The notes beneath the pieces were generated by a model. The model ran no database searches. It saw only the letters and a program-made list of their open reading frames with translations, and had not been told where the DNA came from. From Aquirufa sp. (GTDB lineage Bacteria > Bacteroidota > Bacteroidia > Cytophagales > Spirosomataceae): 64,000 nucleotides of DNA. Within the stretch, counting starts at the first letter, position 1, and each line of letters opens with the position of its first letter. The position numbers and the translations under genes were made by a program. This document shows positions 36,577 through 62,704 of this stretch, piece by piece. The stretch covers positions 47,211-111,210 of the forward strand of contig JBIKRO010000002.1 of the NCBI GenBank assembly GCA_044349095.1. The letters are read 5' to 3'.

Positions 36577-37632
36577 TTATTTATTTTTCCAATAATTGGC
36601 CAAGCTGGATCCATTGATGTTCATGACTGGACCAAAAATGGCTGCGGGTAATCCTACAGTTGCCACTTTTCCCATGGCCATGGCTAAACCTGAGGCTAAA
36701 CCTGCATTTTGTAATCCTACTTCAATAGCGATTGTTCGACAATCTTTTTCAGGAAGATTGGTGAGTCTACCTCCCCAATATCCTAAAATAAAACCGATGA
36801 TGTTGTGTAAAAAACAAGCCAAAACAAGCAGTGGGCCAACGGAAATAAGAGCATCCCTTCCATTAGCTGTAATAATGATGATGATCAATCCAATACTAAT
36901 CATGGAGATTAGTGGCAATTGTTCTTGAAACCAAGGCCATTTATTTCCAATGATTCGGTTGTAAATGACCCCTAAAATAATGGGGATTAAGATCAATTTA
37001 CTGATTTCCCAAATCATGGCGATCAGATCAATTTCGATCAATTGGCCGGCCAGATTTTTCATCAACAAGGGAGTTAAAAGGGGCGCAATGAATGTGGCGA
37101 TGGACGTTAGCGTGAGTGAAAGAGCTACATTGGCCTTGGCTAAATAAGACATAACGTTCGAAGCTAATCCGCAAGGCATGCAACCTACTAAAATGATGCC
37201 CGCCGATATTTCCGGCGGGAAGCTAAATACTTTTGTTAAGCCCCAGCCCACTAATGGCATGATGGAAAATTGGAAAAATACGCCTAAAGCCACAGCTTTT
37301 GGAGACTTTAACACTTCTTGGAAATCTGAAATCTGCATGGTAGATCCCATCCCAAACATGATTAATTGCAGCAATGGGATAATCAATATTTTAAATTTTA
37401 CATCACCAAAGCCAATGAAGGGCGTAGGGAATTGTAGCGTTAAAACTACCGCTGCGATGATCCACAGCGTAAATGAGAAGCCTTTCAGTGACTCTTTGGT
37501 ATGGGTGGAGATGGCTATCAGCGCAACGCCAATGATCCATAAAATTCCGGCCCAAGAAGTATCTGAAAAAATAAGCCCAATAAGTATAATGGTCGCCCCA
37601 GAAATGGATAATAATTTAAAGTTGTTTTTCAT
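36577..37632 (-). CDS. bile acid:sodium symporter (BASS/SBF) family transporter with an N-terminal extension
   Basis: Polytopic membrane protein with 'EVGLQNAGLASGLA' and 'MFGMGSTM' type SBF signatures. It has about 75 extra N-terminal residues carrying additional TM segments. Overlaps the AraC gene by 17 nt. Confidence 0.72.
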   Translation of the reverse strand: MKNNFKLLSISGATIILIGLIFSDTSWAGILWIIGVALIAISTHTKESLKGFSFTLWIIAAVVLTLQFPTPFIGFGDVKFKILIIPLLQLIMFGMGSTMQISDFQEVLKSPKAVALGVFFQFSIMPLVGWGLTKVFSFPPEISAGIILVGCMPCGLASNVMSYLAKANVALSLTLTSIATFIAPLLTPLLMKNLAGQLIEIDLIAMIWEISKLILIPIILGVIYNRIIGNKWPWFQEQLPLISMISIGLIIIIITANGRDALISVGPLLVLACFLHNIIGFILGYWGGRLTNLPEKDCRTIAIEVGLQNAGLASGLAMAMGKVATVGLPAAIFGPVMNINGSSLANYWKNK

Positions 37633-38509
37633 AATAGGTTTTGCGGTATTTATGCGGACTGACGCCCGTCATTTTTTTAAAGGTTAACGAAAAGTGTTGT
37701 GGCGAATAAAAGCCAGTTTCATAGGCTATGTCGCCTATTTTATGATTGAAATGTGTCATTAAATTCATGGCAATATTGATGCGTGTTTTGATTAAAAAGT
37801 TGATAGGACTTAAGCCCGTCTCCATTTTCATTCGCTCACTAAACGCCGTGATTCCGAGCTGCGCTATCTGAGCCATCTCAGGTACAGACCAATGATGCAA
37901 TGGATCTTTCGTTATATTTTGTTCAATAATTTGACTCACTTTTGTATTTTCTGACGTTTTTAAACTAGACTTTTGAGCTTCGCGTGCGTATAAAATCATG
38001 ATTTGGTCAATAATATGGATGACCATTTCATTTTGGCTCATTTCGTGGACAAATATTTCATTGGTCAACTGCACAAATAATTTGGCCAAGAAATCTGATT
38101 TATTGATTTTGAATTTATGGTAGTTTTTGAAAATTTCGCCAATTTCCATTTGGTCATATTTGGAAATTTTAGACCAATATCCAAATTCTAAATCTTGATC
38201 AGCATCAAAAAATTTAGTGCGTATAATGAGGTGAAAGAAGGATGAACGTCTAATTCGATTAGGGATAATTTCGACATTTTCCCATGGGCATACCACCAAA
38301 CAGTCACCGGGAAGCATGGTTTGTCTATTACCGTCAACACTAATTTCAAAAATTCCATCTTTGAAATAGAACATGCGAATACCGATTCCTTGAGGTAAAT
38401 ATACGGGGTTTGACTTGTTTGAGTCAACGGTCTGAAAGCTAAAATGCTCGATAAATGGGAAGTGAGCACTACAATCATTAAATGGAAATGTTAACGCAAA
38501 ATTTTTCAT
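37616..38509 (-). CDS. AraC family transcriptional regulator
   Basis: N-terminal cupin-like sensor region and a C-terminal double HTH ending 'IAYETGFYSPQHFSLTFKKMTGVSPHKYR'. Confidence 0.88.
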   Translation of the reverse strand: MKNFALTFPFNDCSAHFPFIEHFSFQTVDSNKSNPVYLPQGIGIRMFYFKDGIFEISVDGNRQTMLPGDCLVVCPWENVEIIPNRIRRSSFFHLIIRTKFFDADQDLEFGYWSKISKYDQMEIGEIFKNYHKFKINKSDFLAKLFVQLTNEIFVHEMSQNEMVIHIIDQIMILYAREAQKSSLKTSENTKVSQIIEQNITKDPLHHWSVPEMAQIAQLGITAFSERMKMETGLSPINFLIKTRINIAMNLMTHFNHKIGDIAYETGFYSPQHFSLTFKKMTGVSPHKYRKTYYEKQL

Positions 38510-38722: not shown

Positions 38723-41700
38723 ATGATAAAAAATTACAAAAAGAATCTAACAAGGTTATTGTTAGGCTTGGCTATCATGATGCCAAATTTGATTTTTGCT
38801 CAAGCCAGAATCACTGGTTTGGTCAGTTCTGCCAAGGGCAATGAAGCCATTGCAGGTGTATCAGTCGCCATTAAGGGGACTAGTCAGGGCACATCAACAG
38901 ACGCGAATGGTAAGTATTCCATTAATGCGCCTAGTAACGCAACCCTAGTTTTTTCATTTGTTGGTTTTGTGAAAAAAGAAGTAAGCGTAGGTGCTCAGTC
39001 TGTGATTAATGTTTCTCTTTCTGAAGAAACCACAGCCTTAGATGAAGTAGTCGTTACTGCTTTGGGTATTAAAAAGGAGTCGAAAAAATTAGGTTATGCA
39101 ACCACAACGATCACTCCTGAGGCCATTACAGAGAATAGATCTCCTAACTTCATGAATGCTTTACAAGGTAAAATTGCCGGTGTAAACATTTCATCTCTAG
39201 GAACTGGACCTGCAGGTACTTCTAAAATTCGAATCAGGGGTCAGTCTTCATTCTCTGGTCAAAACTCGCCTTTAATTGTTATCAATGGTGTGCCTATTGA
39301 TAATACCAACTTTGGTACCAATCCAGGTAATAATGCCTCCGATAATTCAATTGGCGTCCGTGGAAGTGGTAATACTTCCGATGGGGGTGATGGTTTGTCA
39401 AGTATAAATCCAGATGACATTGAGTCCATGACGGTTTTGAAAGGAGCAACTGCTGCCGCATTGTATGGTTCTCGTGCGAAAGATGGGGTTTTAATGATCA
39501 CGACAAAAACAAAAGGTAAAACAAAGGGTATCGGCGTTTCATATAATATGAATTACACCAACGAGACACCTTTGGACTTCACTGATTATCAATATGAGTA
39601 TGGCCAAGGAGAAAGTGGTTTGCGCCCTACAACGGCTAACCCGACTTCAGGTCAGTGGTCTTTTGGTGAGAAATTTCAGCCAGGAATGACCCAAGTACTT
39701 TTTGATGGAGTTAGCGTTCCTTATGCGCCTGTATATGATCGAATTAATAAGTTCTTTGTAAAAGGAATGAACTTGACCAATACCGTGAGTATTGCTAGCA
39801 ATAGTGATAACGGTGGTTTCAATATGTCTATTTCTAATATGGATAACAATGGTATTGTTTCAAACAATACGTTTAATCGAAAAACGATCAACTTAGGTTT
39901 TGCTTATGATCTTTCTACGAAGCTATCAGTAGCAGGAAATATCAACTACTCGAATGAGTATAACAAGAACCCACCTAATATTGCGAATCAAGATAACTCG
40001 ATTCCAACAGCCGTTTATAACATGGCTAACTCGATGCCTTTTGATTTGTTAGAGCAGAAAGCGGTGGATGCCAACGGAGACGAGTTTGTATATTCTCGTT
40101 TTAGAAATAGAACGAATCCTTACTTCACCATGAAGAAGCAATTTCAAAACATTAGAAGAGATCGTATTTTCGGAAATATTTCTGCCAAATACAATATCCT
40201 ACCATGGTTATTTGTTCAAGGTAGAGTAGGTCAGGATTATTGGTCACGTGATCAAGATTTTAACAACTTCCCTACAGGACATGCCTCCATCGGGCCTGCA
40301 CCTGCCGGTTTTGTGAATGGAACATATACACAAGAATCTAGAAGATTTAGAGAAACCAATACCGACATTTTGATTTCAGCTACTAAGGCCTTTGGAGATT
40401 TTGAGTTTAATTTAACGGCGGGTGGTAATCAAATGTATCGTCGCTCCGACTTGAATAGTACTCAAGTTGTGGACTTTGTCGTAAGAGATTTATACACAGT
40501 CATGAATGGACGTGTGAAGGATCCGGTTTATGGATTAAGTGAAAGGTCCGTTAATTCCGTGTATGGATCGGGTGAAATTTCATTTAGAAATTATTTGTTT
40601 TTAAATGTAACCGCTCGTAACGACTGGTTCTCTACGCTTTCACCGGCGAATAGAAGCATTTTCTATCCTTCTGTTTCGGGTAGTTATGTATTTTCGCAAG
40701 CATTTGACAACATGCCTTCTTGGTTGACCTTCGGTAAATTAAGAGCTGCTGTGGCAGAAGTGGGATCAGATACGGACGTTTCTCCCTATTCAAACAATTT
40801 GTTTTATGGCATTAACCCCAACTTATTTGCTAATCCTGCCGGTGCTTTGCAACCCGTTGGAGGTGGACAAGGAAACGTGGTGCCTAACGCAGGTTTGAAA
40901 CCAATGAGAACGCGTGAATCTGAAATCGGTTTGGAATTAAAAATGTTCAATAGCCGCGTAACCTTAGATATGGCCGTGTATCAGAAGTTGACCAGCGACC
41001 AAATCGTTTCTGCTCAAATTTCAGATGCTTCAGGATTTACGAACTCCCTTATTAATAGTGGACAAAGTGAGAATAAAGGATTTGAAATGTTATTGAATTT
41101 GGTGCCTATCAAAACAGCAGATTTCCAATGGGATTTAACGCTTAATGGTTCTTATAACACCACAAAGGTATTAAGCTTATTGACTAATACTCCGGGGGAA
41201 AGAATTACAGTAGGTACTCACGTATTTAATGGTGAACTACGTCAGGTAGTAGGCCAAGAAATGGGCCAAATTTATGGCTTTGGCTATAGACGTGATGCTA
41301 ACGGGAAAAGAATTTTTGGGGCTAACGGTATTGCCTTAAGAACTCCTGATTTGATTTCTTTTGGAAGTGCTATTCCTAAGTATGTGGGCGGTATTACAAA
41401 CACGTTTAATTATAAGGGAATTTCATTATCAGCCTTGATTGATTTCAAAGTAGGAAACATGATGCTTTCGGGAACTAATTTCAATGCAGTACGTCACGGA
41501 TTGCATAAGATGACCTTGGAAGGTAGAGAAGGTGGCGTAGTGGCTGATGGAGTGAATGCACAGGGTGGACCCAATACGGCTAAGGCAGGTGTTCAACCAT
41601 TCTGGGAAGTAGTTCGTTCCCAAGCATTAATTGAGCCTGTTGTATATGATGGTAGTTATTGGAAATTACGTCAAATTACAGCTGGATACGATTTTACGAA

Positions 41701-41896
41701 GCACTTAAGCCCGAAATCGCCAATTAAAGGGATCAAATTGAGCTTTGTTGCCAATAATGTATTAATACTCAAAAAATACATAGATAATATTGACCCTGAG
41801 TCATTTGGATATTCTTCAGATAACTTGGTGGGAATGGAGTCAACAGGCTTGCCAACGACTAGAAGTTTAGGATTTAATTTAAATGTTAAATTTTAA
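38723..41896 (+). CDS. SusC/RagA family TonB-dependent outer membrane transporter
   Basis: Signal peptide, CarboxypepD_reg-like 'ITGLVSSAKGNEAIAGVSVAIKGTSQGTSTDANGKYSI', plug 'DEVVVTALGIKKESKKLGYA', and a C-terminal aromatic residue '...NLNVKF'. 1057 aa. Confidence 0.93.
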   Translation: MIKNYKKNLTRLLLGLAIMMPNLIFAQARITGLVSSAKGNEAIAGVSVAIKGTSQGTSTDANGKYSINAPSNATLVFSFVGFVKKEVSVGAQSVINVSLSEETTALDEVVVTALGIKKESKKLGYATTTITPEAITENRSPNFMNALQGKIAGVNISSLGTGPAGTSKIRIRGQSSFSGQNSPLIVINGVPIDNTNFGTNPGNNASDNSIGVRGSGNTSDGGDGLSSINPDDIESMTVLKGATAAALYGSRAKDGVLMITTKTKGKTKGIGVSYNMNYTNETPLDFTDYQYEYGQGESGLRPTTANPTSGQWSFGEKFQPGMTQVLFDGVSVPYAPVYDRINKFFVKGMNLTNTVSIASNSDNGGFNMSISNMDNNGIVSNNTFNRKTINLGFAYDLSTKLSVAGNINYSNEYNKNPPNIANQDNSIPTAVYNMANSMPFDLLEQKAVDANGDEFVYSRFRNRTNPYFTMKKQFQNIRRDRIFGNISAKYNILPWLFVQGRVGQDYWSRDQDFNNFPTGHASIGPAPAGFVNGTYTQESRRFRETNTDILISATKAFGDFEFNLTAGGNQMYRRSDLNSTQVVDFVVRDLYTVMNGRVKDPVYGLSERSVNSVYGSGEISFRNYLFLNVTARNDWFSTLSPANRSIFYPSVSGSYVFSQAFDNMPSWLTFGKLRAAVAEVGSDTDVSPYSNNLFYGINPNLFANPAGALQPVGGGQGNVVPNAGLKPMRTRESEIGLELKMFNSRVTLDMAVYQKLTSDQIVSAQISDASGFTNSLINSGQSENKGFEMLLNLVPIKTADFQWDLTLNGSYNTTKVLSLLTNTPGERITVGTHVFNGELRQVVGQEMGQIYGFGYRRDANGKRIFGANGIALRTPDLISFGSAIPKYVGGITNTFNYKGISLSALIDFKVGNMMLSGTNFNAVRHGLHKMTLEGREGGVVADGVNAQGGPNTAKAGVQPFWEVVRSQALIEPVVYDGSYWKLRQITAGYDFTKHLSPKSPIKGIKLSFVANNVLILKKYIDNIDPESFGYSSDNLVGMESTGLPTTRSLGFNLNVKF

Positions 41897-41918: not shown

Positions 41919-43436
41919 ATGAAAAAGATAGCAATAATTTTATTTTCAGCATGTGGGTTAATAGGACTCAATGCTTGTGATGCGGGCTTCGACGAGATGA
42001 ATGTAAACAAAACAGCGGCAATAGCCATCAACCCTGTTTTTGCATTAAATAACGCCGTAATTAATACTACTCCTCCGTCACCAACAGTTCAATATGAAAT
42101 GGGGATAGTCCAACAAATGATTTCGCCCAACTCTGGGGTTTTAGCAGGGGCTAATTTTAATCAAGATAACCGTGATTATACGCAGGCAACTTGGCAGCGT
42201 TATTACCGTTCTGTGATTCGAAATACCTATGATGTGATCGCTACAACCAAAGATCCGTCAAGAACTAATTTGGTTAACATGGCTAAGATTTTACAATCCT
42301 ATGCCTTTTTAGTGTTGACAGATACGTATGGTGATATTCCTTATACAGAAGCAGGAAAAGGATATACGGATCAAAAAGTTTATCCTAAATATGATAAACA
42401 ACAAGCTGTTTATGCTGGAATTATCAAAGATATATCTGATGCGGTGGCAGCCTTAGATGCTAGTAAAACTAGAGAAACGGCTGATGTCCTTTTTGGAGGT
42501 GATGTGGCAAAATGGAAGAAGTTTGGAAATTCACTTTTGCTTCGTATCGGAATGCGCTTGTCTAAAGTGGACGCAACCCAAGCTCAAGCATTAGTAACTA
42601 GAGCGTTTGCGGGTGGCGTTATCACTACTAATGCAGATAATGTGCTTATTCTTCATGATGCTAATTATTTAAATAGCATAGGCCAATTGTTAAACGCTAC
42701 TGAGGCGAACAATTTTTACCTAGCTGCACCATTCGTTGATCATTTAAAGAAAACAAATGATCCGCGCTTGAGGTCAATCGCGGTACGTTACGTGGGAGCC
42801 ACTTCGGGAACTCAACAAACGCCTGCTAGGGCGGTGATTGATCCTGCTGTTCAAATAGGAATGCCTTTTGGATATGACAACTCTTCAATCAGTGGACCTG
42901 TAAAGACATTAGGTTTAGCTAGTTTTTATGATTTTAGTCAAGCCGACAGAACTCGAATGAATAAAACGACGGCTCGCGCTTATCTAGTAACAGCTTCACA
43001 AACTAATTTATTGTTAGCTGAGGCAGTAACAAGAGGTTGGGTTACAGGAAGCGCCAAAGACTATTATGAAGCAGGTGTTAAAACACACATGGCCCAAGTA
43101 AGCGAAATGGACGCTAATTCAGTGGTTGCTTCAAGCGCCGTTGATGCATATTTAGCTGCAAATCCATTTAATTCAACAACGGCCTTGGAGCAAATTAATA
43201 CGCAATATTGGATTTCATGTTTCTTAAATGGACCTGAAGCATTTGCTAATTTCCGCCGTACAGGATTCCCTAAATTGACGCCCAATCCTTTCTCAGGTAA
43301 AGCTATCAAAGGAGATTTCATCAATCGTTTAACGTATCCTAACTCTGAAATTTCAGTTAATTCGGTGAACGTAAAAGCAGCTATAGCGAACCAAGGTGCG
43401 GATGATTTAGATACCAAAGTTTGGTGGCATAAATAA
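41919..43436 (+). CDS. SusD/RagB-like outer membrane lipoprotein
   Basis: Lipobox 'GLNAC' and a helical TPR-like body. Lies immediately (22 nt) downstream of susC-like. 505 aa. Confidence 0.82.
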   Translation: MKKIAIILFSACGLIGLNACDAGFDEMNVNKTAAIAINPVFALNNAVINTTPPSPTVQYEMGIVQQMISPNSGVLAGANFNQDNRDYTQATWQRYYRSVIRNTYDVIATTKDPSRTNLVNMAKILQSYAFLVLTDTYGDIPYTEAGKGYTDQKVYPKYDKQQAVYAGIIKDISDAVAALDASKTRETADVLFGGDVAKWKKFGNSLLLRIGMRLSKVDATQAQALVTRAFAGGVITTNADNVLILHDANYLNSIGQLLNATEANNFYLAAPFVDHLKKTNDPRLRSIAVRYVGATSGTQQTPARAVIDPAVQIGMPFGYDNSSISGPVKTLGLASFYDFSQADRTRMNKTTARAYLVTASQTNLLLAEAVTRGWVTGSAKDYYEAGVKTHMAQVSEMDANSVVASSAVDAYLAANPFNSTTALEQINTQYWISCFLNGPEAFANFRRTGFPKLTPNPFSGKAIKGDFINRLTYPNSEISVNSVNVKAAIANQGADDLDTKVWWHK

Positions 43437-43461: not shown

Positions 43462-44907
43462 ATGAAAGATTTTGTAAAACGTTTTAGAGCGGAGGATAAA
43501 GCCAAGGCTCAAGAAAACTCAAGAAGAAATTTCCTTCGCAATTCTGCCTTAGGCGGCTTGTCATTGGGGATGATTTTTGATCATGATCCTGAAAAGGAAA
43601 TGGAGTATATTACTCAAAAAGTGAACAAATCGAGTAATCCCTCAGAACTTAAAATTACCGATATTCGTATTGCTGTAATTGACAAAGCACCTATGACTTG
43701 TCCCTTGATTCGTATTGATACAAACCAAGGGCTAGTTGGCTGGGGTGAGGTGCGCGATGGCGCAAGTCCGAAATATGCCATGATGCTGAAAAGCAGATTG
43801 ATGGGTCAAAATCCATGTAATGTGGAGAAGATTTTCAAAATCATCAAGCAATTTGGCGGTCAAGGAAGAGCTGCTGGCGGTGTTTGTGGAGTAGAAATGG
43901 CACTTTGGGATTTAGCAGGAAAGGCTTTTGGCGTTCCTGTGTACCAAATGCTAGGAGGTAAGTATCGCGATGAAATTCGAATTTATGGAGATACTCCTGA
44001 GGTCGCAGATCCAAACGAATTTGCTAAAAAAATGAAGGAACGTCAAAATTTAGGTTTGACATTTTTGAAAATGGACTTTGGTATTCAATTATTAGCTGAT
44101 GTTCCTGGAGCTTTAGTGGGTGGAAAGAATTGGGATGTAAAGAGACAATGGGGGAATAACCCATCTGCGAAGGGAAATGCTCGTTCGTACAGCTGGACGA
44201 AACATCCTTTCACACGTATCCAAGTAACCGATAAAGGGATTCAGTATTTAGCTGATTATGTGGGCACAGTTCGAAATGTGATCGGGTATGATACTCCACT
44301 TGCAGCGGATCATTTTGGTCATTTTGATGTAAATACCGCGATTCGTTTAGGTAATGCGTTGGAGAAATACCAATTAGCTTGGTTAGAGGATATGATACCT
44401 TGGCAGTATACGGAACAATGGCATCAAATTACTTCGGCAATCAATACGCCAACGTTAACCGGTGAAGACATTTACTTGAAAGAAGAATTTATCAAGTTGA
44501 TCGACGCACACGCGGTGGATATGATTCAACCAGATTTAGCTAGTTCAGGTGGTATTTTGGAAACGAAGAAAATAGGTGATTATGCTGAAGAAAATGGAGT
44601 TCCTATGGCAATGCACTTTGCCGGTTCTCCGATTTGCTTTATGGCTAATATTCATTGCGCTGCGGCCACAGAAAATTTTGTTGCGCTTGAGCATCATTCA
44701 TTCGATGTTCCTTGGTGGGAGGATTTAGTGACTGGAATCGAGAAGCCAATTTTCAACAAAGGTTTTGTCAAAGTTCCAAACAAGCCAGGTTTAGGGGTCG
44801 AATTGAATGAAGAGGTAGTAAAAGCCCACTTGAAATCAGGTGAAATGTTCTTTGCTCCTACGGACGATTGGACCAAGATTGATTCATGGGATCGCGAATG
44901 GTCTTAA
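43462..44907 (+). CDS. enolase superfamily protein (mandelate racemase/muconate lactonizing family, acid-sugar dehydratase-like) with a twin-arginine leader
   Basis: Leader '...ENSRRNFLRNSALGGLSLGMIF'. Metal/catalytic blocks are 'AADHFGHFD', 'LAWLEDMIP', 'LTGEDIY', 'MIQPDLASSGG' and 'MAMHFAGSP'. Confidence 0.85.
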   Translation: MKDFVKRFRAEDKAKAQENSRRNFLRNSALGGLSLGMIFDHDPEKEMEYITQKVNKSSNPSELKITDIRIAVIDKAPMTCPLIRIDTNQGLVGWGEVRDGASPKYAMMLKSRLMGQNPCNVEKIFKIIKQFGGQGRAAGGVCGVEMALWDLAGKAFGVPVYQMLGGKYRDEIRIYGDTPEVADPNEFAKKMKERQNLGLTFLKMDFGIQLLADVPGALVGGKNWDVKRQWGNNPSAKGNARSYSWTKHPFTRIQVTDKGIQYLADYVGTVRNVIGYDTPLAADHFGHFDVNTAIRLGNALEKYQLAWLEDMIPWQYTEQWHQITSAINTPTLTGEDIYLKEEFIKLIDAHAVDMIQPDLASSGGILETKKIGDYAEENGVPMAMHFAGSPICFMANIHCAAATENFVALEHHSFDVPWWEDLVTGIEKPIFNKGFVKVPNKPGLGVELNEEVVKAHLKSGEMFFAPTDDWTKIDSWDREWS

Positions 44908-44914
44908 ATTTTAC

Positions 44915-44942
44915 AAGGGTGATGTTCGCATCACCCTTTTTT
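44915..44942 (+). terminator. intrinsic terminator/attenuator inside the locus, after the first enolase-family gene
   Basis: Perfect 10-bp stem AAGGGTGATG/CATCACCCTT, TTCG loop, then a T-run. Confidence 0.7.
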
Positions 44943-44967
44943 ATCTACACATAAACCTATTTATATC

Positions 44968-45897
44968 ATGAAAATTAAAGTAATAATATTGAGTTATTTG
45001 GCCATTAGCCTTTCATTTTTGTCTTTCGGACAAAATATCCAAATGCCAAAAGAGATGATTATGACTTACTCTCAGCAATGGAAGGGTGAGCGCTTTCCTG
45101 ATGGTCGTCCAAGAGTTTCAGATGATTTGGTCAAAAGATTAGCCAAAATTTCCATTGAGGAAGCTTGGGGCGTAATGCGCGGCGAAGGATACGAAAGTCA
45201 ATTTGAAGGGAATTGGCATATTATAAATCCCAATAAGCCGCTTGCTGGCCGTGTCCTGACTGCGCAATACATGCCAATGCGTCCAGATATCAATACGCCC
45301 ATCATGGAAAAGGGGAAATCAGAAAATCGGAAAGGTGCTTCTAATTCCTGGCCTATCGATTTATTACAAGAGAATGATGTGTATGTAGCGGATGGCTATG
45401 GCAAGATTATAGACGGTACTTTGATTGGTGATAATTTAGGAAACTCGATTTATGCCAAATCAAAAACGGGTGTTGTTTTTGACGCCGGTATCCGCGATTT
45501 AGAAGGACTTGAGGCCATTGATGGTTTTGTAGGCTTTGTACGTGGGGTGGATCCTTCATTTATTAAAAATGAAATGTTGACTGGTATCAATTACCCAATC
45601 CGAATTGGTCGTGTCACGGTGATGCCTGGGGATTTGATCTTAGGTAAAAAAGAAGGTGTTATTTTTATTCCTGCTCATTTAGCCGAAAAGGTAATTTCAA
45701 CATCTGAGTTTATTGGCATGACAGATGCTTTTGGCCATTTACGTTTGAAGCAAGGAAAATATACGCCAGGTCAAATAGATCAAAAATGGACGGATGACAT
45801 CAAGGCTGATTTTGTTAAATGGGCCGACGAAAATCCAGATAAGCGTCCGATGTCTAAAGCGGAATTAGCCAAGATTTTGAAAGATAAAAATTGGTAA
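44968..45897 (+). CDS. RraA-like / class II aldolase-like family protein, long form, with a Sec signal peptide
   Basis: Signal 'MKIKVIILSYLAISLSFLSFGQ' and core 'IGDNLGNSIYAKSKTGVVFDAGIRDLEGL', matching the RraA/HMG-aldolase 'G..G.V.DG..RD' region. 309 aa. Confidence 0.75.
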   Translation: MKIKVIILSYLAISLSFLSFGQNIQMPKEMIMTYSQQWKGERFPDGRPRVSDDLVKRLAKISIEEAWGVMRGEGYESQFEGNWHIINPNKPLAGRVLTAQYMPMRPDINTPIMEKGKSENRKGASNSWPIDLLQENDVYVADGYGKIIDGTLIGDNLGNSIYAKSKTGVVFDAGIRDLEGLEAIDGFVGFVRGVDPSFIKNEMLTGINYPIRIGRVTVMPGDLILGKKEGVIFIPAHLAEKVISTSEFIGMTDAFGHLRLKQGKYTPGQIDQKWTDDIKADFVKWADENPDKRPMSKAELAKILKDKNW

Positions 45898-45902
45898 TTC
45901 AG

Positions 45903-46844
45903 ATGAGAAAAATAATCGGAATTTTCGCAATTGTCTTGGTGTCGACGTTCGCGTGGGGCCAACAAATTTCCAAGGAAGAAATGCTTTTTTTGACTCCTTT
46001 ATGGAAAGGGGAACGTTTTGCTGATGGCCGACCAAAGGCCTCTGACGCTTTATTGCAAAGGCTCAAATCCGTGACATTGGAAGAGGCCTGGGCAGTATTG
46101 AAAAATGAAAACTTTAAGCATAATTATGAAGACGGTTGGCAAACCATTAATCCCGATAGTGTGTTAGTGGGTCGAGCGTTAACCGCTACTTTTATGCCGG
46201 GTCGACCAGATATCCAACGGGTTATCGACGACCGTGGTCATACCAAAGACGGAAGAATTAAGTCTCAAAATTCATGGCCCATTGACATGCTAGTCAAAGG
46301 CGATGTTTATGTGGTGGACCAATTTGGTGCACATGAGGATGGTCCGACGATTGGCGATAATTTGGGGAATTCCATTTATGCGAAAACGGGCAATGGCATT
46401 GTGTATAATGGTGCTGTTCGCGACATCAATGGCTTAAAGGAATTAGGTAGGTTTACCTCCTTTTTTCGCACCTATCACCCTTCCCATCATTTAAACAATC
46501 CCGATGGGGAGTTGAATACTACGTTGGTAGGAATAAATACACCGACCCGCATCGGAAAAGCAACGGTTCTTCCAGGAGACGTGGTTTTAGGTCGAGATGG
46601 CGGAGTGATTTTCATCCCTCCACATTTATTGGAAAAAGTGGTAAAGACCTCTGAGATTGTTCGTTTGAGGGATATGTTTGGGCATCAGCGTTTACGCGAG
46701 CAAAAATATACCCCGGGTCAAATTGACAATCGTTGGAGTGAAGAAATCGAAAAAGATTTCTCAAAATGGTTAAATGACAAAATAGACAAATTGCCAGTTC
46801 CTAAGGCACAAATACAAGAATTTTTGAAAGGTAGGACTTGGTAA
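45903..46844 (+). CDS. RraA-like / class II aldolase-like family protein, paralog 2, with a Sec signal peptide
   Basis: Signal 'MRKIIGIFAIVLVSTFAWGQ' and core 'IGDNLGNSIYAKTGNGIVYNGAVRDINGL'. Roughly half its positions are identical to the upstream paralog by eye. The ATG at 45903 is preferred over the TTG at 45891. Confidence 0.75.
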   Translation: MRKIIGIFAIVLVSTFAWGQQISKEEMLFLTPLWKGERFADGRPKASDALLQRLKSVTLEEAWAVLKNENFKHNYEDGWQTINPDSVLVGRALTATFMPGRPDIQRVIDDRGHTKDGRIKSQNSWPIDMLVKGDVYVVDQFGAHEDGPTIGDNLGNSIYAKTGNGIVYNGAVRDINGLKELGRFTSFFRTYHPSHHLNNPDGELNTTLVGINTPTRIGKATVLPGDVVLGRDGGVIFIPPHLLEKVVKTSEIVRLRDMFGHQRLREQKYTPGQIDNRWSEEIEKDFSKWLNDKIDKLPVPKAQIQEFLKGRTW

Positions 46845-46851
46845 AAAATAG

Positions 46852-48144
46852 ATGAAAATGAAAAATAAATCAGATAGACGCGAGTTTTTTAAAAATGGAT
46901 CTTTAGCTGCTTCGGCGTTAATGTCCGGATCCATGTTTCACTGGGGTGGTCGCTATGAAGAGGCCATCAGTGATAATCCAAAGATGTCGGCTCCGGCCGA
47001 CTTGAAAATTACTGACATCAAATGTGGGTATATCCGAGGAGGCTACCACCTGTATGTTAAAATTTTTACGAATCAAGGTATTTATGGCGTGGGAGAAGGT
47101 GCGGATGCAACTCCGGGAACTTATCATTTAGTTAAAATGATGGGCCAACGGATCATTGGCAAAAGCCCATTGAATATCAATCGCTTATTTGAGGACATAC
47201 GCAAAAGTGGATTTTTTGCCGGTGCTCAGTCGGGCATGTATGTAGCTGTTTTGACAGCTGTAGAAAGTGCACTTTGGGATTTGGCTGGGAAGGCTTTGGG
47301 TTTACCGGTGTACCAATTATTAGGTGGAAAATTTAGGGATAAAATCCGTGTCTATATGGACACAGCTTTATATCAAACCAAATTACCTAAGCCCTCTGAT
47401 TTTGCGGAGGCGGCTCAGAAGGCGGTGGATATGGGATTTAATGCGATTAAATTTGACATAGATCAAGCTAATGATCCTAATAAATATGATGCATACAATT
47501 GGACAGCAAGTCCGGCTGAATTAAGACGTATGTTTGAACAAATCGCCGCTGCTCGAAAGCAAGTGGGCCCTGATATCGACATATGTGTGGACATGCATGG
47601 AAGATACGATGCTCCTACCGGTGAAAAAGTAGCGAAAATGATGGAGCCATTAAATTTAATGTGGCTAGAGGAACCCGTTCCAGCTGAGAATATCCAGGCA
47701 TATAAAAAAATCACGGACTCCACTTCTACGCCTATTTGCGCGGGTGAAAACCAGTATTTAGCTTATGGATTTAGGGAGATGTTGGAAATCGGTGCGGTTG
47801 ACATCATCATGCCAGACTTGCAGAAAGCGGGTGGTTTGGGTGAAGGCCAGCGAATTGCCAACTTGTCGAATTTGTATTATGTGCCTTTTGCGCCGCACAT
47901 GGTGTCCTCATTTTTAGGTGCTATGGCTGCTTGTCACGTGTGTGCATCGGTACCGAATTTCTTAATCTTAGAATGGCAAGCGTATTTCCATACGGATCCG
48001 ATGTATAAAGAGATTGTCATTCACAAAGGAGAATGGCTAGATAAAGGATTTATTCCATTATCGAATGAACCAGGTGTGGGTGTTGATATCAACATTGAAG
48101 CCATGCGTAAATACGCAGTTAAAGGAGTTCCGTTTTTTGATTAG
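46852..48144 (+). CDS. enolase superfamily protein (galactonate/mannonate dehydratase-like) with a twin-arginine leader
   Basis: Leader 'MKMKNKSDRREFFKNGSLAASALMSGSMF'. Blocks are 'CVDMHGRYD', 'LMWLEEPVP', 'CAGENQY', 'IIMPDLQKAGG' and 'FAPHMVSS'. Confidence 0.85.
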   Translation: MKMKNKSDRREFFKNGSLAASALMSGSMFHWGGRYEEAISDNPKMSAPADLKITDIKCGYIRGGYHLYVKIFTNQGIYGVGEGADATPGTYHLVKMMGQRIIGKSPLNINRLFEDIRKSGFFAGAQSGMYVAVLTAVESALWDLAGKALGLPVYQLLGGKFRDKIRVYMDTALYQTKLPKPSDFAEAAQKAVDMGFNAIKFDIDQANDPNKYDAYNWTASPAELRRMFEQIAAARKQVGPDIDICVDMHGRYDAPTGEKVAKMMEPLNLMWLEEPVPAENIQAYKKITDSTSTPICAGENQYLAYGFREMLEIGAVDIIMPDLQKAGGLGEGQRIANLSNLYYVPFAPHMVSSFLGAMAACHVCASVPNFLILEWQAYFHTDPMYKEIVIHKGEWLDKGFIPLSNEPGVGVDINIEAMRKYAVKGVPFFD

Positions 48145-49370
48145 CGGATACGCTTTAAAATTTCTATACAGGCTCTTCCATTGTGGTAAGGGCCTTTCCA
48201 AGGGCCTATTTTTCCATTGCGAATCATAGGCTCTTCTTTTTCATCGATCCCCCAAAGCCATTCGCCTGAGGATGATTTTAGTTTTGATTTGATGAAAGAC
48301 CAACTTCCTAGACTCAGTGCGTAGAATTTTTTATTTCCAGTTAACTGGTATGCGTTATAATATCCGACCATGGCTTCTGCTTGTGGCCACCAATGTTTCT
48401 GGGTATTGATATGTCCATGATTTTTCTCATTCCACATCCCACCATCTTTTGGGTCAATTCCTTTTTCGGCTTCGATGGCCATATTTACGGCCAATTTTTT
48501 CATTTTTTTAATCCAAATCGGATTTTTAATCGTTTCCGCAGTTTCTAACAAAAGCCAAGCAGATTCGATGTCATGTCCAAAAGAAACGGCTTCCGATCTT
48601 GTAGACCAATTATCAGTGAAAAATAAAGTTTGCGTTTTGCCGTTGGCTATAATTTTTTCATGAAAAATGGAAAGCATGGTTTCAATTTCAGCCTTTAATT
48701 TTTTGTCGGGATACACCTGATAAAGATTTGAAAAGGCTTCAATCAAATGTAAATGTGTATTCATGGATTTTTTTTGATCTGCTTTTCCTTCGGTAATCGT
48801 CTTATCATCAATCGGCGTCCAAGCCTCATTGTAAGCTTCATAATAACCCCCATTTTTCAGGTCCTTGCAGTTGGTTTGTAAGATCTGATAGATGCTTTTT
48901 GCTTTTTCTAACGCTTGCGGATTTTTCGAAATTTTATAATATTCAGCAAAGGCATATAGCATAAATCCTTCTGCATAGACTTGTTTATGGGTGTCGGAGG
49001 GAGTTCCGTTCGATTTCACGGACCAATAAGCGCCTTTATTTTTAGTGTCCCAAAAATAAGTATTGAGGTAATTAAATGCTCGGTCGGCCAATTTTTTATA
49101 CCCTGGCTTTGGGTCCATTTGATAGGCAGCTGAAAATGTCCAAAGAACTCTACTATTCAAAATTAAACCTTTATCGGCCTGCAGGTTGGGTACGTTATTC
49201 GCGTCAACAGCTCCGTAGAATCCGCCTTTTTCGACATCCACACTATTCTTTTCCCAATAACTTAAAATGTCATTCAGTTCCGTTTTTATTTCTTTTCTAA
49301 AGTCGCTTGGGCTTTGTGCGGAAATGGATTGTGCGTACATTAAAAAAATAAGAATTTTAAAGATTTTCAT
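48141..49370 (-). CDS. AGE family (N-acylglucosamine 2-epimerase-like) (alpha/alpha)6 epimerase/isomerase with a signal peptide
   Basis: Signal 'MKIFKILIFLMYAQSISAQ' and 'EKGGFYGAVDANNVPNLQADKGLILNSRVLWTFSAAY', typical of the AGE superfamily. 409 aa. Confidence 0.78.
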   Translation of the reverse strand: MKIFKILIFLMYAQSISAQSPSDFRKEIKTELNDILSYWEKNSVDVEKGGFYGAVDANNVPNLQADKGLILNSRVLWTFSAAYQMDPKPGYKKLADRAFNYLNTYFWDTKNKGAYWSVKSNGTPSDTHKQVYAEGFMLYAFAEYYKISKNPQALEKAKSIYQILQTNCKDLKNGGYYEAYNEAWTPIDDKTITEGKADQKKSMNTHLHLIEAFSNLYQVYPDKKLKAEIETMLSIFHEKIIANGKTQTLFFTDNWSTRSEAVSFGHDIESAWLLLETAETIKNPIWIKKMKKLAVNMAIEAEKGIDPKDGGMWNEKNHGHINTQKHWWPQAEAMVGYYNAYQLTGNKKFYALSLGSWSFIKSKLKSSSGEWLWGIDEKEEPMIRNGKIGPWKGPYHNGRACIEILKRIR

Positions 49371-49667
49371 GGAGCTAGGTTTATGGCAACAGATGCTTTT
49401 TATATATTAAATATAAAGATTGTGTTTGAATTTTAATGGAATAAATTTTTGAAATAATCATTTGATTATACTAAATCGCTTACCTTTTTAAACAAAATGG
49501 CCATTTGATTTCATATTTTAGGTCATTTTAAAAAAAGTAATTATCTTTCTTATGTAAATTATGCACATTGATTTAAATATTAAATGGGATTTTGAATGCT
49601 GTTATTTTACTAAGTCAAATTTAAAAAGTATTAAATTTTAAAATTTAAAAACCAGATAAGTTCATAA

Positions 49668-50639
49668 ATGACAAATCCTATTCAAATATCCATTGTTATA
49701 CCTGTTTATCAAGGAGAAAAAACGCTGCCAAAATTAGTTGGCGAGTTAATTGCCTATAGCCAAGTACAAATGACTAAGCTTGGGAATCCCTATATCATTA
49801 ATGATATTATTCTAGTGCATGATTGTGGTTTTGATCGCTCAGATAAAGTTATCGAAGAATTAAGTGAGCTATACTCAGAAGTACGGCCACTTTGGTTATC
49901 TAAAAATTTTGGTCAGCATCCCGCCACCATGGCTGGAATGGCAAGTGCTACAGGTGATTGGATCGTTACATTAGATGAAGATGGACAGCAAGACCCTACT
50001 TTTATTGCAGGAATGTTAGACGAGGCATTGTCTAAATCACTCCAAGTAGTTTACGCGCTGCCTACAAATCCTCCTCCCCACGGTTTTTTAAGAAATATAT
50101 TTAGCGTCTTAGCGAAATCGATTTTCCAAAAGCTTTCAGGAAATGTTATGTCTAAGTATTTCAATAGCTTTCGAATGATTGATGGGGAAATTGCAAGAAC
50201 ATTGGCAGCTTATAGTGGAAATGGAATTTATTTAGATGTTGGTCTTTTATGGGTTTCTTCAAGAATTGGAAGTTTTCCCGTTGTGCTTAGAGATGAAGAT
50301 AGGCCATCAGGGTATTCTTATGGTAAGTTGATGAGTCATTTTTGGCGATTAATTTTAACTTCAGGCACAAAACCCTTAAGATTAATCACTTTGTTAGGAT
50401 TCTCCTCGTTAATGATTGCTTTCATCACATCCATCATTGCTTTGTATGATAAAATCTTAGGAAATGTACCAGTTCAGGGCTGGACCTCTTTGTTCATTAT
50501 GGTCTCATTTTTCTCCGGAGCCATCATGCTTTCATTGGGAATAGTGGCTGAATATTTGGCAATAACCATGAGCATTGCCATGGGAAAACCACTCTATGTG
50601 ATTGCTACGAAACCGTCAAGGCCCCAACAAAACACATAA
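49668..50639 (+). CDS. GT2 family glycosyltransferase, polyprenyl-phosphate glycosyltransferase architecture (GtrB/ArnC/Ppm1-like)
   Basis: 'ISIVIPVYQGEKTL' N-terminus, 'TLDEDGQQDP' DxD-type motif, and two C-terminal TM helices ('LITLLGFSSLMIAFITSIIAL', 'LFIMVSFFSGAIMLSLGIVAEYL'). Confidence 0.85.
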   Translation: MTNPIQISIVIPVYQGEKTLPKLVGELIAYSQVQMTKLGNPYIINDIILVHDCGFDRSDKVIEELSELYSEVRPLWLSKNFGQHPATMAGMASATGDWIVTLDEDGQQDPTFIAGMLDEALSKSLQVVYALPTNPPPHGFLRNIFSVLAKSIFQKLSGNVMSKYFNSFRMIDGEIARTLAAYSGNGIYLDVGLLWVSSRIGSFPVVLRDEDRPSGYSYGKLMSHFWRLILTSGTKPLRLITLLGFSSLMIAFITSIIALYDKILGNVPVQGWTSLFIMVSFFSGAIMLSLGIVAEYLAITMSIAMGKPLYVIATKPSRPQQNT

Positions 50640-51601
50640 TGAAACTAATTTGGGTATTAGGGAAAGGTGGATTATTAGGTTCCGCTATTTATGATTCGTT
50701 ACTACGCGAAGAACAAATCATTTATTCCCCTAAGGACAAATTTAATTGGACAGATGAATCTAGCATCCTGGGACAAATAGAAAAGTCGGTTGAGGAGTTT
50801 GCTAATTCATTAACCGATGGCCAGCATTGGCATATTTATTGGGCTGCTGGTGTAGGAACAATGCATAGCACAGTTCCCGAATTGTTATTAGAAACAAAAA
50901 TCATATCTAGGTTAACTCAACTCATTCAATCCAATAAAATTCTTAATTCTGTAAGGGGTTGCTTAAATTTTGCAAGCTCTGCAGGTGCAGTGTATGCGGG
51001 GTCGACCGAATTAATTTTGAATGAAACCTCATCAGTTTCACCCATGAATGCGTATGGGTTTGAAAAAGTCAAACAAGAGGAATTATTGATGGCTTTTGGT
51101 CGAGAAAATCCTGGTATTGGAATTATTATTTCTCGCTTATCTACACTATATGGACCTGGGCAAGCCTTTGGAAAGGGTCAAGGATTGATTGCCGAAATTG
51201 CTAGAAGAATCCTGAAAAATCAGCACGCTTCCATTTATGTTCCGTTTGATACAATCCGAGATTATATCTATTCTTTTGATGCCGCTAAGGCAATGATTGA
51301 AACTTCCAATTTTTTAAGTGAAGAATTGGGTCAAACAATAAAAATAATTGCTTCAGAGAGCCCCACGACCATTGCCGAAATCATCTCATTATTTAAAAAT
51401 ATTTCAAAAAGAACCCCCAGAATTATCTTGAGCGATAGTTACAAAAGAAATGCATATAATCGAAAAGTTATACTTAAATCGATACATCAGCCTTTGAAAT
51501 TCAACTTCGCCAAAACAAGTTTATTAATAGGGATTTCAAATGTGTATTCATTTGAGAAACAAAATTTAAAACTATTAAATACTCAGCTTGTTTCCAATTA
51601 G
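50639..51601 (+). CDS. NAD-dependent epimerase/dehydratase (extended SDR) family protein
   Basis: Rossmann-like 'VLGKGGLLGSAI', 'SSAGAVY' Ser and 'YGFEK' YxxxK. 1-nt overlap (TAATG) with the GT2 gene. Confidence 0.7.
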   Translation: MKLIWVLGKGGLLGSAIYDSLLREEQIIYSPKDKFNWTDESSILGQIEKSVEEFANSLTDGQHWHIYWAAGVGTMHSTVPELLLETKIISRLTQLIQSNKILNSVRGCLNFASSAGAVYAGSTELILNETSSVSPMNAYGFEKVKQEELLMAFGRENPGIGIIISRLSTLYGPGQAFGKGQGLIAEIARRILKNQHASIYVPFDTIRDYIYSFDAAKAMIETSNFLSEELGQTIKIIASESPTTIAEIISLFKNISKRTPRIILSDSYKRNAYNRKVILKSIHQPLKFNFAKTSLLIGISNVYSFEKQNLKLLNTQLVSN

Positions 51602-51621
51602 ATTAAATCCAATTTACTCCT

Positions 51622-55357: not shown

Positions 55358-56506
55358 TTAAAAGGGTTTTTGGTTCCAAAGAACGGGGTTTCGAATGGGG
55401 AAATTTCGGATGACTTCTTGGTTTGTCGGGAAATGGTCTAATTTTTTCCACAGAGCCAAGCTATTATCATCGCCATGAATGGCAGAAAAATAGAGAAAAC
55501 TTTGGGCAATCGGCCATTGGTCGAAATACATGACATCAGCCGGATAGGTCCACAGGCTTTTGTCTTTGACGAATGGAATTAGATAAGAAACGCCTTTTTT
55601 TATGGATCTGCCATCGGGCATTTGCCAGTCCCACATATTCAATACATGGGCTAGGGTACTCATAATATCTAAATTAAATATGGAATAACCGTAGGGCTTA
55701 GTCCGTTTTAACTCGAGCGGAAATGAACCATCGGCCGCCATTTGGTCTGGAATAAATGCCGTCCGGTAGCGTTTTCTACAGAAATCGATCAGTGAGGCGT
55801 TGCCGGTAAAGGATGCAAATACGGCCACTTGGAGTGCCCAACAAGTTCCATGGTTGTTTAATGCATCTCTTTCAGTCATTCCATAGGGATGCGTCGTCAT
55901 CCAAAGTACATATTCCTTAAACCAAGCGACAAATGCGGCATAATCTTCTGGTGCGATTTGACTTTTTAAGGCTTCCATGGCCTTGACCACTTCCAGAAAA
56001 TGAATGGTATCAATGATTCCAATGCCACGACCCGTTGCTTTTCCTTTTATTGCTTGAGCATATAATAGGGAAGGATTCATGCGCGTAGATGGGTCCACAA
56101 ACCAAGCCTTAAAATGCGGAATAGCTGCTTTGGCATATTGAGCTTTTTTGGTGAATGTGTAGGCAGATGCTAGTGAACCGACAATCTCGCTGAAACGTAT
56201 CATGGCCAGACGGTGTGCCACAAAATTTTCTGGATTAGTCTCTCCGTCTCTTTGAATGTAAGGTCCAGTAGGATTTGCTGGGTCGGGCCACCAATAATCG
56301 CCTTCTGAATAAAAATCATTTACGCCTCCGGCTGATCGTGGACATTGTGTGGCAGTAACCGTAATGGGCTTTTGCGTCAAATTTTTATCGGCTATGACAA
56401 TCGTTTTTGCGATGCGCTCTTTGGAATAAATCTCCCTAGGAGCTACAGAAAAGGTCAGAGTATTATTTAATAAAAAGAGAAATAAGAAAGAAATTTTCAA
56501 TTTCAT
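55358..56506 (-). CDS. alginate-lyase-family (PL5-like) polysaccharide lyase candidate
   Basis: 'GDYWWPDPANPTGPY', 'GRGIGIIDT', 'LNNHGTCWA' and 'RTKPYGYS', paralogous to the N-domain of 51622-54963. Start is set at the ATG that forms an ATGA overlap with the sulfatase stop and precedes signal 'MKLKISFLFLFLL'. Confidence 0.75.
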   Translation of the reverse strand: MKLKISFLFLFLLNNTLTFSVAPREIYSKERIAKTIVIADKNLTQKPITVTATQCPRSAGGVNDFYSEGDYWWPDPANPTGPYIQRDGETNPENFVAHRLAMIRFSEIVGSLASAYTFTKKAQYAKAAIPHFKAWFVDPSTRMNPSLLYAQAIKGKATGRGIGIIDTIHFLEVVKAMEALKSQIAPEDYAAFVAWFKEYVLWMTTHPYGMTERDALNNHGTCWALQVAVFASFTGNASLIDFCRKRYRTAFIPDQMAADGSFPLELKRTKPYGYSIFNLDIMSTLAHVLNMWDWQMPDGRSIKKGVSYLIPFVKDKSLWTYPADVMYFDQWPIAQSFLYFSAIHGDDNSLALWKKLDHFPTNQEVIRNFPIRNPVLWNQKPF

Positions 56507-61039: not shown

Positions 61040-61144
61040 GTTATCTGGATTGATTTTGGGTTTTTCTATTGGCAGCAACGAATCGCAAAATAGAAGGTTG
61101 CTTTTTTCATAGGTTTGGAGAATACAATCATCATGCGTCTAAAT

Positions 61145-61179
61145 TAAAAATAACTCCCCATTTAATAGGGAGTTATTTT
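61145..61179 (-). terminator. stem-loop with flanking T-runs between susD-like and GH88 (terminator/attenuator candidate)
   Basis: 13-bp stem AAAAATAACTCCC/GGGAGTTATTTTT with a GC core ACTCCC/GGGAGT and a 9-nt loop. T-run follows on either strand. Confidence 0.55.
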
Positions 61180-61200
61180 TAAAATTACTGAAAAAAATGA

Positions 61201-62688: not shown

Positions 62689-62704
62689 TTAAAATTTTAT
62701 AGAA

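Follow-up and report, generated by a model that had tools for sequence, protein, structure and literature searches.

Conserved twin-arginine leaders on two enolase-superfamily proteins of an Aquirufa sp., and a putative extracytoplasmic module with RraA-like partners

A 64,000-nucleotide stretch of contig JBIKRO010000002.1 of an Aquirufa sp. (hereafter the window, with positions counted from its first letter) encodes two proteins of the enolase superfamily, ENO1 and ENO2, both of which start with a leader that contains a twin-arginine (RR) motif. As judged by comparison of homologous sequences, these leaders are neither due to chance nor start-codon artefacts; they appear to be ancient and conserved, and to lie outside the globular fold. 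The unit conserved with them would consist of an enolase-superfamily enzyme with a leader for twin-arginine translocation (Tat), an RraA-fold enzyme predicted to be exported by Sec, and a symporter related to PanS and the bile-acid:sodium symporter (BASS) family. In many Bacteroidota a SusC/SusD pair is added to this unit, and in the window the enzyme pair occurs in two paralogous copies. The main clue to function comes from the RraA-like partners and the symporter, none of which was mentioned in an earlier note on this DNA. We consider it probable that these genes specify a conserved extracytoplasmic catabolic module, which is present twice in the operon described here.

The twin-arginine leaders of ENO1 and ENO2

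The N-terminus of ENO1 reads MKDFVKRFRAEDKAKAQENS-RR-NFLRNSALGGLSLGMIF, with S-R-R-N-F-L-R at residues 20-26 (RR codons at 43522-43527), and that of ENO2 reads MKMKNKSD-RR-EFFKNGSLAASALMSGSMF, with D-R-R-E-F-F-K at residues 8-14 (RR codons at 46876-46881). Both leaders conform to the Tat consensus S/T-R-R-x-F-L-K at the boundary between the N-terminal (n-) and hydrophobic (h-) regions. The RR motif is followed by at least 12 uncharged residues, and a moderately hydrophobic h-region is present in both proteins (12-residue uncharged window with a mean Kyte-Doolittle value of at least 0.8). No in-frame ATG, GTG or TTG codon occurs between M1 of ENO1 and its RR motif, and the two candidate starts of ENO2, M1 and M3, are both located upstream of its RR motif. 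The possibility that the leaders are start-codon artefacts was therefore ruled out, because ENO1 offers no alternative start ahead of the motif and the leader is maintained at the protein level. True starts downstream of the leaders, a concern voiced in the earlier note, were thus not found.

The RR motif was present in 118 of the 120 best homologues of ENO1 and likewise in 118 of 120 for ENO2, the exceptions being truncated entries. In the ENO1 family (n = 90) the residues R21, R22, F24, G32 and G36 are invariant, and the same is true for R9, R10 and F12 in the ENO2 family (n = 64). We also inspected 80 related loci, centred on ENO1 and drawn from Bacteroidota, Rhodothermales, Planctomycetota, Verrucomicrobiota and Acidobacteriota, in which 93 of 97 open reading frames (ORFs) of the family carry the motif. 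A crude Tat-like rule, demanding that an RR motif be accompanied by 12 uncharged, moderately hydrophobic residues, was satisfied by 92 of these 97 ORFs (95%) as compared to 28 of the 913 neighbouring ORFs in the same loci (3%), and several of these 28 resemble genuine Tat substrates. The RR-x-F-(L/F) leaders that the earlier note had pointed out, together with the sequence strings it had quoted, were all found where it placed them, and their conservation among orthologues is borne out by these counts.

The leader is a clade-specific feature. Only about 13 of the 117 full-length representatives (at 50% identity) nearest to ENO2 have a Tat-like N-terminus, and the others begin at the capping domain. 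ENO1 and ENO2 are clearly diverged from each other, as had been claimed before, with an identity of 31%. Their alignment extends through the RR region, and this suggests that the leader is older than the split between the two. The leaders seem to lie outside the fold, since Escherichia coli DgoD and the protein of PDB entry 2QQ6 start opposite residue ~51 of ENO2 and residue ~63 of ENO1, and since the AlphaFold2 (AF2) model of ENO1 (pLDDT 85, pTM 0.82) is confident from residue 61 onward, with residues 1-60 being of low confidence and showing a lone helix at residues 21-38.

Among curated Tat models, TIGR01409 is passed by the ENO1 leader with 20.6 bits (cut-off 16.7). Of 38 distinct leaders in the ENO2 family, 25 match this model at E≤0.01, and one ENO2 orthologue reaches 20.8 bits. 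The ENO2 leader in the window misses the curated models, and one could thus argue that the RR N-termini are not export signals at all, but extensions of cytoplasmic proteins that serve regulation, oligomerization or partner binding. The n-region of the Bacteroidota ENO1 proteins is indeed unusually long (up to ~50 residues) with a conserved MKNxxDRFKF start, and all characterized enolase-superfamily enzymes are, to our knowledge, cytoplasmic. Nevertheless, we regard this explanation as very improbable in view of the strict retention of RR-x-F and an uncharged h-region across five phyla, the TIGR01409 match of ENO1, the SusC/SusD genes that adjoin the enzyme genes, and the classical Sec signals of their obligate partners (see below).

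The conserved extreme N-terminus of the Bacteroidota ENO1-type leaders is an MKNxxDRFKFxGxIP-like stretch, represented by MKDFVKRFR in the window (43462-43521; homologues P0002-P0120), and it is joined to the RR motif by a variable low-complexity linker of 15-40 residues. ENO1-type members from Acidobacteriota and Planctomycetota have short n-regions without this conserved stretch. One idea is that it provides a binding site for a chaperone or proofreading factor.

The fate of the leaders after export is a separate matter. By sequence inspection, no canonical A-x-A signal-peptidase site is present in the ENO1 or the ENO2 family, and the enzymes could therefore be released or be membrane-tethered. 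The ENO1-type leaders end in LGMxFD and the ENO2-type leaders in a conserved [FY]-G. Should the leaders act as uncleaved Tat signal-anchors, the enzymes would remain attached to the inner membrane on its periplasmic side, perhaps beside the symporter with which they co-occur. This would also be in line with the h-region of ENO1, which passes directly into an acidic linker, and with the AF2 model, where residues 21-38 form a single helix that is followed by a flexible linker. However, the h-regions are short (~12-16 uncharged residues) and rich in Gly and Ser, features that are commoner in cleavable Tat signals than in membrane anchors, and the conserved aromatic-Gly of the ENO2-type leaders, with small or neutral residues at position -3 and K or R next in 18 of 38 leaders, could be a signal peptidase I site. 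Anchoring is thus the less likely outcome, to which we assign perhaps one chance in several.

Sugar enzymes without redox metal centres are known among Tat substrates, as exemplified by the glucose-fructose oxidoreductase of Zymomonas and the Gfo/Idh/MocA proteins of Bacteroidota. ENO1 and ENO2 resemble these in having an RR leader on an oligomeric, cofactor- or metal-binding carbohydrate enzyme that would be folded in the cytoplasm and act in the periplasm, but they differ in fold and chemistry. RR-bearing neighbours of the Gfo/Idh/MocA type also occur in the related loci. In addition, further clusters of the mandelate racemase subgroup that are 30-46% identical to ENO2 carry RR leaders (P0243, P0259, P0268, P0294, P0310, P0341, P0343, P0370 and P0377). 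Tat-type leaders therefore seem to be present in more lineages of the enolase superfamily than the ENO1 and ENO2 types.

RraA-like partners and conservation of the gene neighbourhood

RraA1 and RraA2, the products of the two genes between ENO1 and ENO2, are 46% identical to each other and score 63 and 62 bits, respectively, against the Pfam RraA-like family (cut-off 24.5). Their residues R176-D177 and R177-D178 align with R123-D124 of the Pseudomonas putida HMG/CHA aldolase (3NOJ), which are the catalytic Arg and a metal-binding Asp. The Arg-Asp pair and a GD motif are shared with this aldolase/oxaloacetate decarboxylase and with the RraA-family proteins 5X15 and RraAS2. RraA1 and RraA2 differ from these in their length of ~310 residues, their Sec signal peptides and their N- and C-terminal extensions, and no aromatic-degradation genes are located near them. 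All their NCBIfam matches are below the respective cut-offs (e.g. 52.8 versus 304.5 bits for TIGR02798 and 98 versus 208 bits for PRK08245). A classical hydrophobic N-terminal signal peptide of the Sec type, ending around A-Q-(A) with Q as the next residue, was found in 69 of 71 RraA-like partners. Co-export of the partner as a Tat hitch-hiker was ruled out for this reason. The independent Tat and Sec signals on the two partners are the strongest indirect support for a real export of the enzymes.

The neighbourhood of ENO1 was compared by searching with the window proteins (tblastn) within 10 kb in the 80 loci. An RraA1-type gene, usually adjoining ENO1, was found in 59 of the 80 loci and an SBF transporter in 30. 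SusD was present in 19 loci, SusC in 18, ENO2 in 19 and an RraA2-type gene directly upstream of ENO2 in 16, while the AraC regulator was found in the same position in 7. RraA2 directly precedes ENO2 in nearly all loci that have both, and also in marine genomes. All-against-all clustering of 1,010 ORFs from these loci revealed no recurrent family besides the enolase-superfamily, RraA-like, SBF, SusC/SusD and AraC families, and specifically no dehydrogenase or kinase.

A bare trio, consisting of an RraA-like gene with a Sec signal, an ENO2 gene with the RR motif and an SBF gene in this order and without SusC/SusD, is found in marine Bacteroidota genomes of ~1.75 Mb (L082-L085, 10001-11275 plus flanks), where it is situated among housekeeping genes, such as those for succinate dehydrogenase and peptidases. 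One flavobacterial genome has an RraA-ENO2 pair. Since the ENO2 orthologue P0154 is encoded by at least 191 contigs, including TARA samples, the module is apparently abundant in seawater.

The best NCBIfam match of the symporter is PanS, the ketopantoate/pantoate transporter, with 246 bits, and TIGR00841 is matched as well. The cut-off for PanS is 400 bits, so the window transporter is not a PanS orthologue. It does share with PanS and plant BASS2 its membership in the bile-acid:sodium symporter family, which carries small 2-oxo and 2-hydroxy carboxylates, including ketopantoate and pantoate. Pyruvate is also transported by carriers of the BASS family.

The genes downstream of ENO2 might suggest that the module serves the neighbouring polysaccharide utilization locus (PUL), where it would process unsaturated uronate products released from an acidic sulfated polysaccharide. 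In the window, a fusion of a PF05426 lyase with GH92 is followed by a second PUL containing two GH88-like genes, a sulfatase and a PF05426 lyase, and an AGE-family epimerase with a signal peptide converges on ENO2 (Table 1). However, these neighbours are not kept with the module elsewhere, the AGE gene being found in 5 and the lyase-GH92 gene in 2 of the 80 loci, and the marine genomes hold the trio among housekeeping genes. We therefore consider such a role for the module improbable; links to the lyase/GH88/sulfatase PUL, to the fused lyase-GH92 protein and to the AGE epimerase found no support.

Catalytic residues and the proposed periplasmic reactions

Both ENO1 and ENO2 contain the capping domain MR_MLE_N and the modified TIM-barrel domain MR_MLE_C, with Pfam scores above the gathering threshold. 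E. coli DgoD was aligned with ENO1, ENO2 and their family members, the roles of its residues being those given in the DgoD literature and in UniProt annotation. The metal ligands D183, E209 and E235 of DgoD, which sit at the ends of barrel strands 3, 4 and 5, correspond to D283, E309 and E335 in ENO1 and to D247, E273 and E299 in ENO2. The general-base dyad D258/H285 on strands 6 and 7 is represented by D358/H385 and D322/H349, E310 by E410 and E374, and K144 by K203 and K200, respectively. The general acid of the DxH motif, H185 in DgoD, is retained as H249 in the DMHGR motif of ENO2 (D247-M-H249), but is replaced by F285 in ENO1. Except for the H185 equivalent, all these positions are invariant in both families. 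In the corresponding ENO1 motif, D283-H-F285-G-H287, the residues D283, H284, G286 and H287 are invariant, and F285 is nearly so.

The five residues that the earlier note had listed as metal ligands and acid/base residues do align with D183, E209, E235, D258 and H285 of DgoD in both proteins. Its further statements, that both proteins have a complete catalytic signature and the DxH...E...E...D...H pattern of dehydratases, hold in full for ENO2; for ENO1 they hold for the D, E, E, D and H, but not for the His of DxH. By this alignment, the full DgoD-type residue set is confined to ENO2, so that ENO1 may rely on a different acid or carry out a different reaction. A further peculiarity of the ENO1 family is an insertion of ~50 residues after barrel strand 2, which includes the invariant His248.

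The scores against the DgoD equivalog NF010624 (cut-off 311 bits) were 249.5 bits for ENO2 and 204.9 bits for ENO1, and with every dehydratase model the score of ENO1 was the lower of the two. Since all equivalog scores remain below the cut-offs, the two proteins were rejected as orthologues of DgoD or ManD. Public annotations read 'mandelate racemase/muconate lactonizing enzyme family protein' or 'galactonate dehydratase'. With DgoD, the two proteins share the two-domain fold and 27-29% identity, ENO2 having all seven catalytic positions in common with it and ENO1 all but H185. Unlike them, DgoD is cytoplasmic and leaderless, and its partners are the kinase DgoK and the aldolase DgoA instead of RraA-like proteins. 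The nearest solved structures overall are structural genomics entries without an assigned function. First among them is 2QQ6, a mandelate racemase/MLE-like protein of Rubrobacter xylanophilus, which is the closest solved relative by sequence (E-values of 2e-97 for ENO2, residues 52-429, and of 1e-56 for ENO1) and also the nearest to the ENO1 model by fold (TM 0.87; range for structures of the mandelate racemase subgroup 0.8-0.88). The motifs IDMHGR, WLEEP, AGEN, MPD and APH are common to it, but 2QQ6 has no N-terminal leader, its residue 7 being opposite residue 52 of ENO2, and neither the insertion nor the DHFGH variant of ENO1 is present in it.

Conceivably, ENO1 is not a dehydratase but has a different enolate-based activity within the pathway, for example as an epimerase, racemase or cycloisomerase, and thereby feeds ENO2 or RraA1. 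Such an activity could account for the replacement of the DxH His by a nearly invariant Phe with the invariant His284 and His287 on either side, for the family-specific insertion with His248 and for the lower scores on dehydratase models; moreover, the structural neighbours of ENO1 include the cycloisomerases 5OLC and 4HPN. On the other hand, ENO1 still has its metal ligands, its His/Asp dyad and the counterpart of E310, and L-rhamnonate dehydratase employs one His as both base and acid, a precedent by which the loss of the His on strand 3 is compatible with dehydration. In addition, ENO1 is mostly accompanied by the RraA-like gene alone and not by ENO2 (59 versus 19 of the 80 loci), as would fit a self-sufficient pair of dehydratase and lyase. 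A non-dehydratase function of ENO1 is therefore rather unlikely, about as much so as membrane anchoring.

The module that we regard as probable could operate as follows. A substrate would be brought into the periplasm by SusC/SusD, and ENO1 and ENO2 would be folded in the cytoplasm before their export via Tat. Once in the periplasm, they would abstract the α-proton of a hydroxy-carboxylate (an acid sugar or a tartrate-like acid), stabilize the enediolate on Mg2+ and eliminate the β-substituent to yield a 2-oxo (3-deoxy) acid. The Sec-exported RraA1 (acting with ENO1) and RraA2 (acting with ENO2) would then cleave this acid in a retro-aldol reaction or decarboxylate it. The products would be a small 2-oxo acid, such as pyruvate, and either an aldehyde or CO2. 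Lastly, the oxo acid would be taken up by the PanS/BASS-like Na+-coupled symporter, with the AraC-type regulator controlling the set. In this scheme we infer Tat export, the cleavage or anchoring of the leaders, the order of the reactions, the substrate and the transported product; the sequences would place the substrate no more narrowly than among hydroxy-carboxylates or acid sugars. Different substrates, one of the two possibilities raised in the earlier note (the other being different stereochemistries), would fit the finding that across genomes ENO1 and ENO2 are each paired with an RraA-like protein of their own.

The pairing of a dehydratase with a class II pyruvate aldolase is well established, as in the RhmD/RhmA (L-rhamnonate) and GudD/GarL (glucarate) pairs of E. 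coli. Here, as there, a dehydratase would deliver a 2-oxo-3-deoxy acid to a divalent-metal aldolase that forms pyruvate and an aldehyde, and the genes adjoin each other and those for a transporter and a regulator. However, the E. coli enzymes are cytoplasmic with aldolases of the HpcH/HpaI fold, whereas the partners described here are of the RraA fold, and export signals are found on the dehydratase-like and the RraA-like enzymes alike. The pair could equally well follow a route of the type tartrate to oxaloacetate to pyruvate.

Several points weigh against the proposed module. Firstly, neither ENO1 nor ENO2 reaches any NCBIfam equivalog cut-off, including those for ManD and the gluconate/galactonate, rhamnonate, arabinonate and talarate dehydratases. 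Secondly, ENO1 is without the DxH acid His, so that its chemistry may differ, and its insertion is poorly modelled (AF2 pLDDT 52-67 at residues 221-250). Thirdly, the ENO2 leader of the window is unusually rich in Ser and has no match to TIGR01409 or to Pfam TAT_signal (PF10518), and to this must be added the aforementioned lack of a canonical A-x-A site in both families. Furthermore, tatA and tatC were not found within the 64-kb window; TatA and TatC have been recorded for Bacteroidetes, Planctomycetes and Acidobacteria (PMC3827258). It should also be noted that SusC/SusD pairs usually import oligomers, yet the conserved set is without a glycoside hydrolase, and that an aldehyde formed in the periplasm would need handling, for which no conserved gene was found in the 80 loci.

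In a wider and more tentative reading, which we would not back at even odds, a large and phylogenetically broad branch of the enolase superfamily, with no function assigned to it so far, might act outside the cytoplasm together with a dedicated RraA-fold lyase or decarboxylase that is also secreted. The starting material would be a hydroxy-acid or acid sugar that is abundant in the environment. Its conversion to pyruvate or a different 2-oxo acid would take place in the periplasm, and only this product would be imported by the BASS/PanS-type symporter, a strategy that may have been kept in the streamlined marine Bacteroidota of ~1.75 Mb. The acid catalyst of the ENO1 type would be rearranged, with His284, His287 or the insertion His248 taking the place of the DxH His. 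For the assignment of enzyme function, the enolase superfamily serves as a textbook example, and the leader-bearing clade comprises thousands of sequences from at least five phyla. If the proposal is correct, the superfamily would gain a cellular compartment that is new to it and probably novel substrates as well; the clade would also provide an example of Tat being used by a non-redox, Mg-dependent enzyme and of organic acids being pre-processed in the periplasm before uptake by soil, freshwater and marine heterotrophs. The fold and the export routes are known, and what is new are the compartment, the partner and the module put forward here. An account of Tat-exported or periplasmic enolase-superfamily enzymes, or of the pairing of ENO and RraA genes, was not found in literature searches, the coverage of which largely excluded subscription journals. 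The defined module of three genes can be cloned and directly screened, and this makes the question testable.

Operon layout and other features of the window

SusC, SusD, ENO1, RraA1, RraA2 and ENO2 form a co-oriented row on the + strand, with intergenic gaps of 22, 25, 60, -7 and 7 nt in this order (Table 1). This tight spacing suggests that the six genes belong to a single operon. The start of RraA2 is likely to be the ATG at 45903. The SusC protein contains Plug and CarboxypepD_reg domains, and the N-terminus of the SusD-like protein, MKKIAIILFSACGLIGLNAC, resembles a lipobox. A SusC/SusD pair adjoining and co-oriented with catabolic genes is a hallmark of PULs. The glycoside hydrolase or lyase that also characterizes PULs is missing, as there is no gene for a carbohydrate-active enzyme inside the operon and none that is kept with it over the 80 related loci.

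Table 1. Positions of the operon, its leaders and other features in the window.
Feature	Position	Strand	Remarks
GH63/MGH1-like glycoside hydrolase, 894 aa	24451-27135		adjoins the next gene
YjgF/RidA-like protein	27125-27610		upstream of nadA and nadC
SBF/BASS-family inner-membrane carboxylate symporter, PanS-like	36577..37632	-	Pfam SBF 1e-40
AraC-family regulator	37616..38509	-	HTH_18/HTH_AraC; divergent from the operon, upstream of the symporter
SusC/RagA TonB-dependent outer-membrane transporter	38723..41896	+	TIGR04056 622.7 bits, above the 368-bit cut-off
SusD-like lipoprotein	41919..43436	+	SusD-like_2 7e-86; SusD-like 1e-68
ENO1, enolase superfamily (mandelate racemase subgroup, DgoD-like), 481 aa	43462..44907	+	MR_MLE_N and MR_MLE_C
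ENO1 leader, aa 1-60	43462..43641	+	long n-region, S-R-R-N-F-L-R, h-region SALGGLSLGMIF, acidic linker
RraA1, RraA/HMG-CHA-aldolase-like	44968..45897	+	Pfam RraA-like 4e-17; predicted Sec-type signal peptide (MKIKVIILSYLAISLSFLSFGQ, followed by N)
RraA2, paralogue of RraA1	45891..46844	+	Pfam RraA-like 1e-16; predicted Sec-type signal peptide
ENO2, enolase superfamily, DgoD-like, 430 aa	46852..48144	+	MR_MLE_N and MR_MLE_C
ENO2 leader, aa 1-50	46852..47001	+	MKMKNKSD-RR-EFFK, Ser-rich h-region, then WGGR
AGE/cellobiose-2-epimerase-family protein	48141-49370	-	signal peptide MKIFKILIFLMYAQSISAQS
Putative strain-specific insertion, 2.15 kb	49456-51608		GC 0.35-0.365
GT2 glycosyltransferase	49668-50639		within the putative insertion
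NAD-dependent epimerase/dehydratase	50639-51601		within the putative insertion
PF05426-GH92 fusion, one ORF of 1113 aa	51622-54963		PF05426 'Alginate_lyase' domain at aa 41-318
Second PUL	55358-64000	-	TonB-dependent receptor fragment at the window edge

The AGE/cellobiose-2-epimerase-family gene converges on ENO2 with a 4-nt overlap of the stop codons, and its product scores 318 bits on EpiA (cut-off 800 bits). The low-GC segment that follows is absent from L001, a contig from a metagenome-assembled genome of a freshwater member of the Spirosomataceae that is ~95% identical to the window; its flanks are only ~70 bp apart there, and the segment thus looks like a strain-specific insertion. L001 does have the adjacent ORF in which the PF05426 domain is fused to a complete GH92 α-mannosidase-type module (N-terminal and catalytic domains), an unusual combination of lyase and hydrolase.

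Besides the receptor fragment, the second PUL encodes a SusD protein, a sulfatase and two GH88-like/GH127-like proteins, together with a PF05426 lyase that here stands alone. This gene content suggests that it targets a sulfated polysaccharide containing uronic acids. Far upstream of the operon, the GH63/MGH1-like glycoside hydrolase gene adjoins that for the YjgF/RidA-like protein ahead of the NAD biosynthesis genes nadA and nadC, an arrangement that is unrelated to the module.

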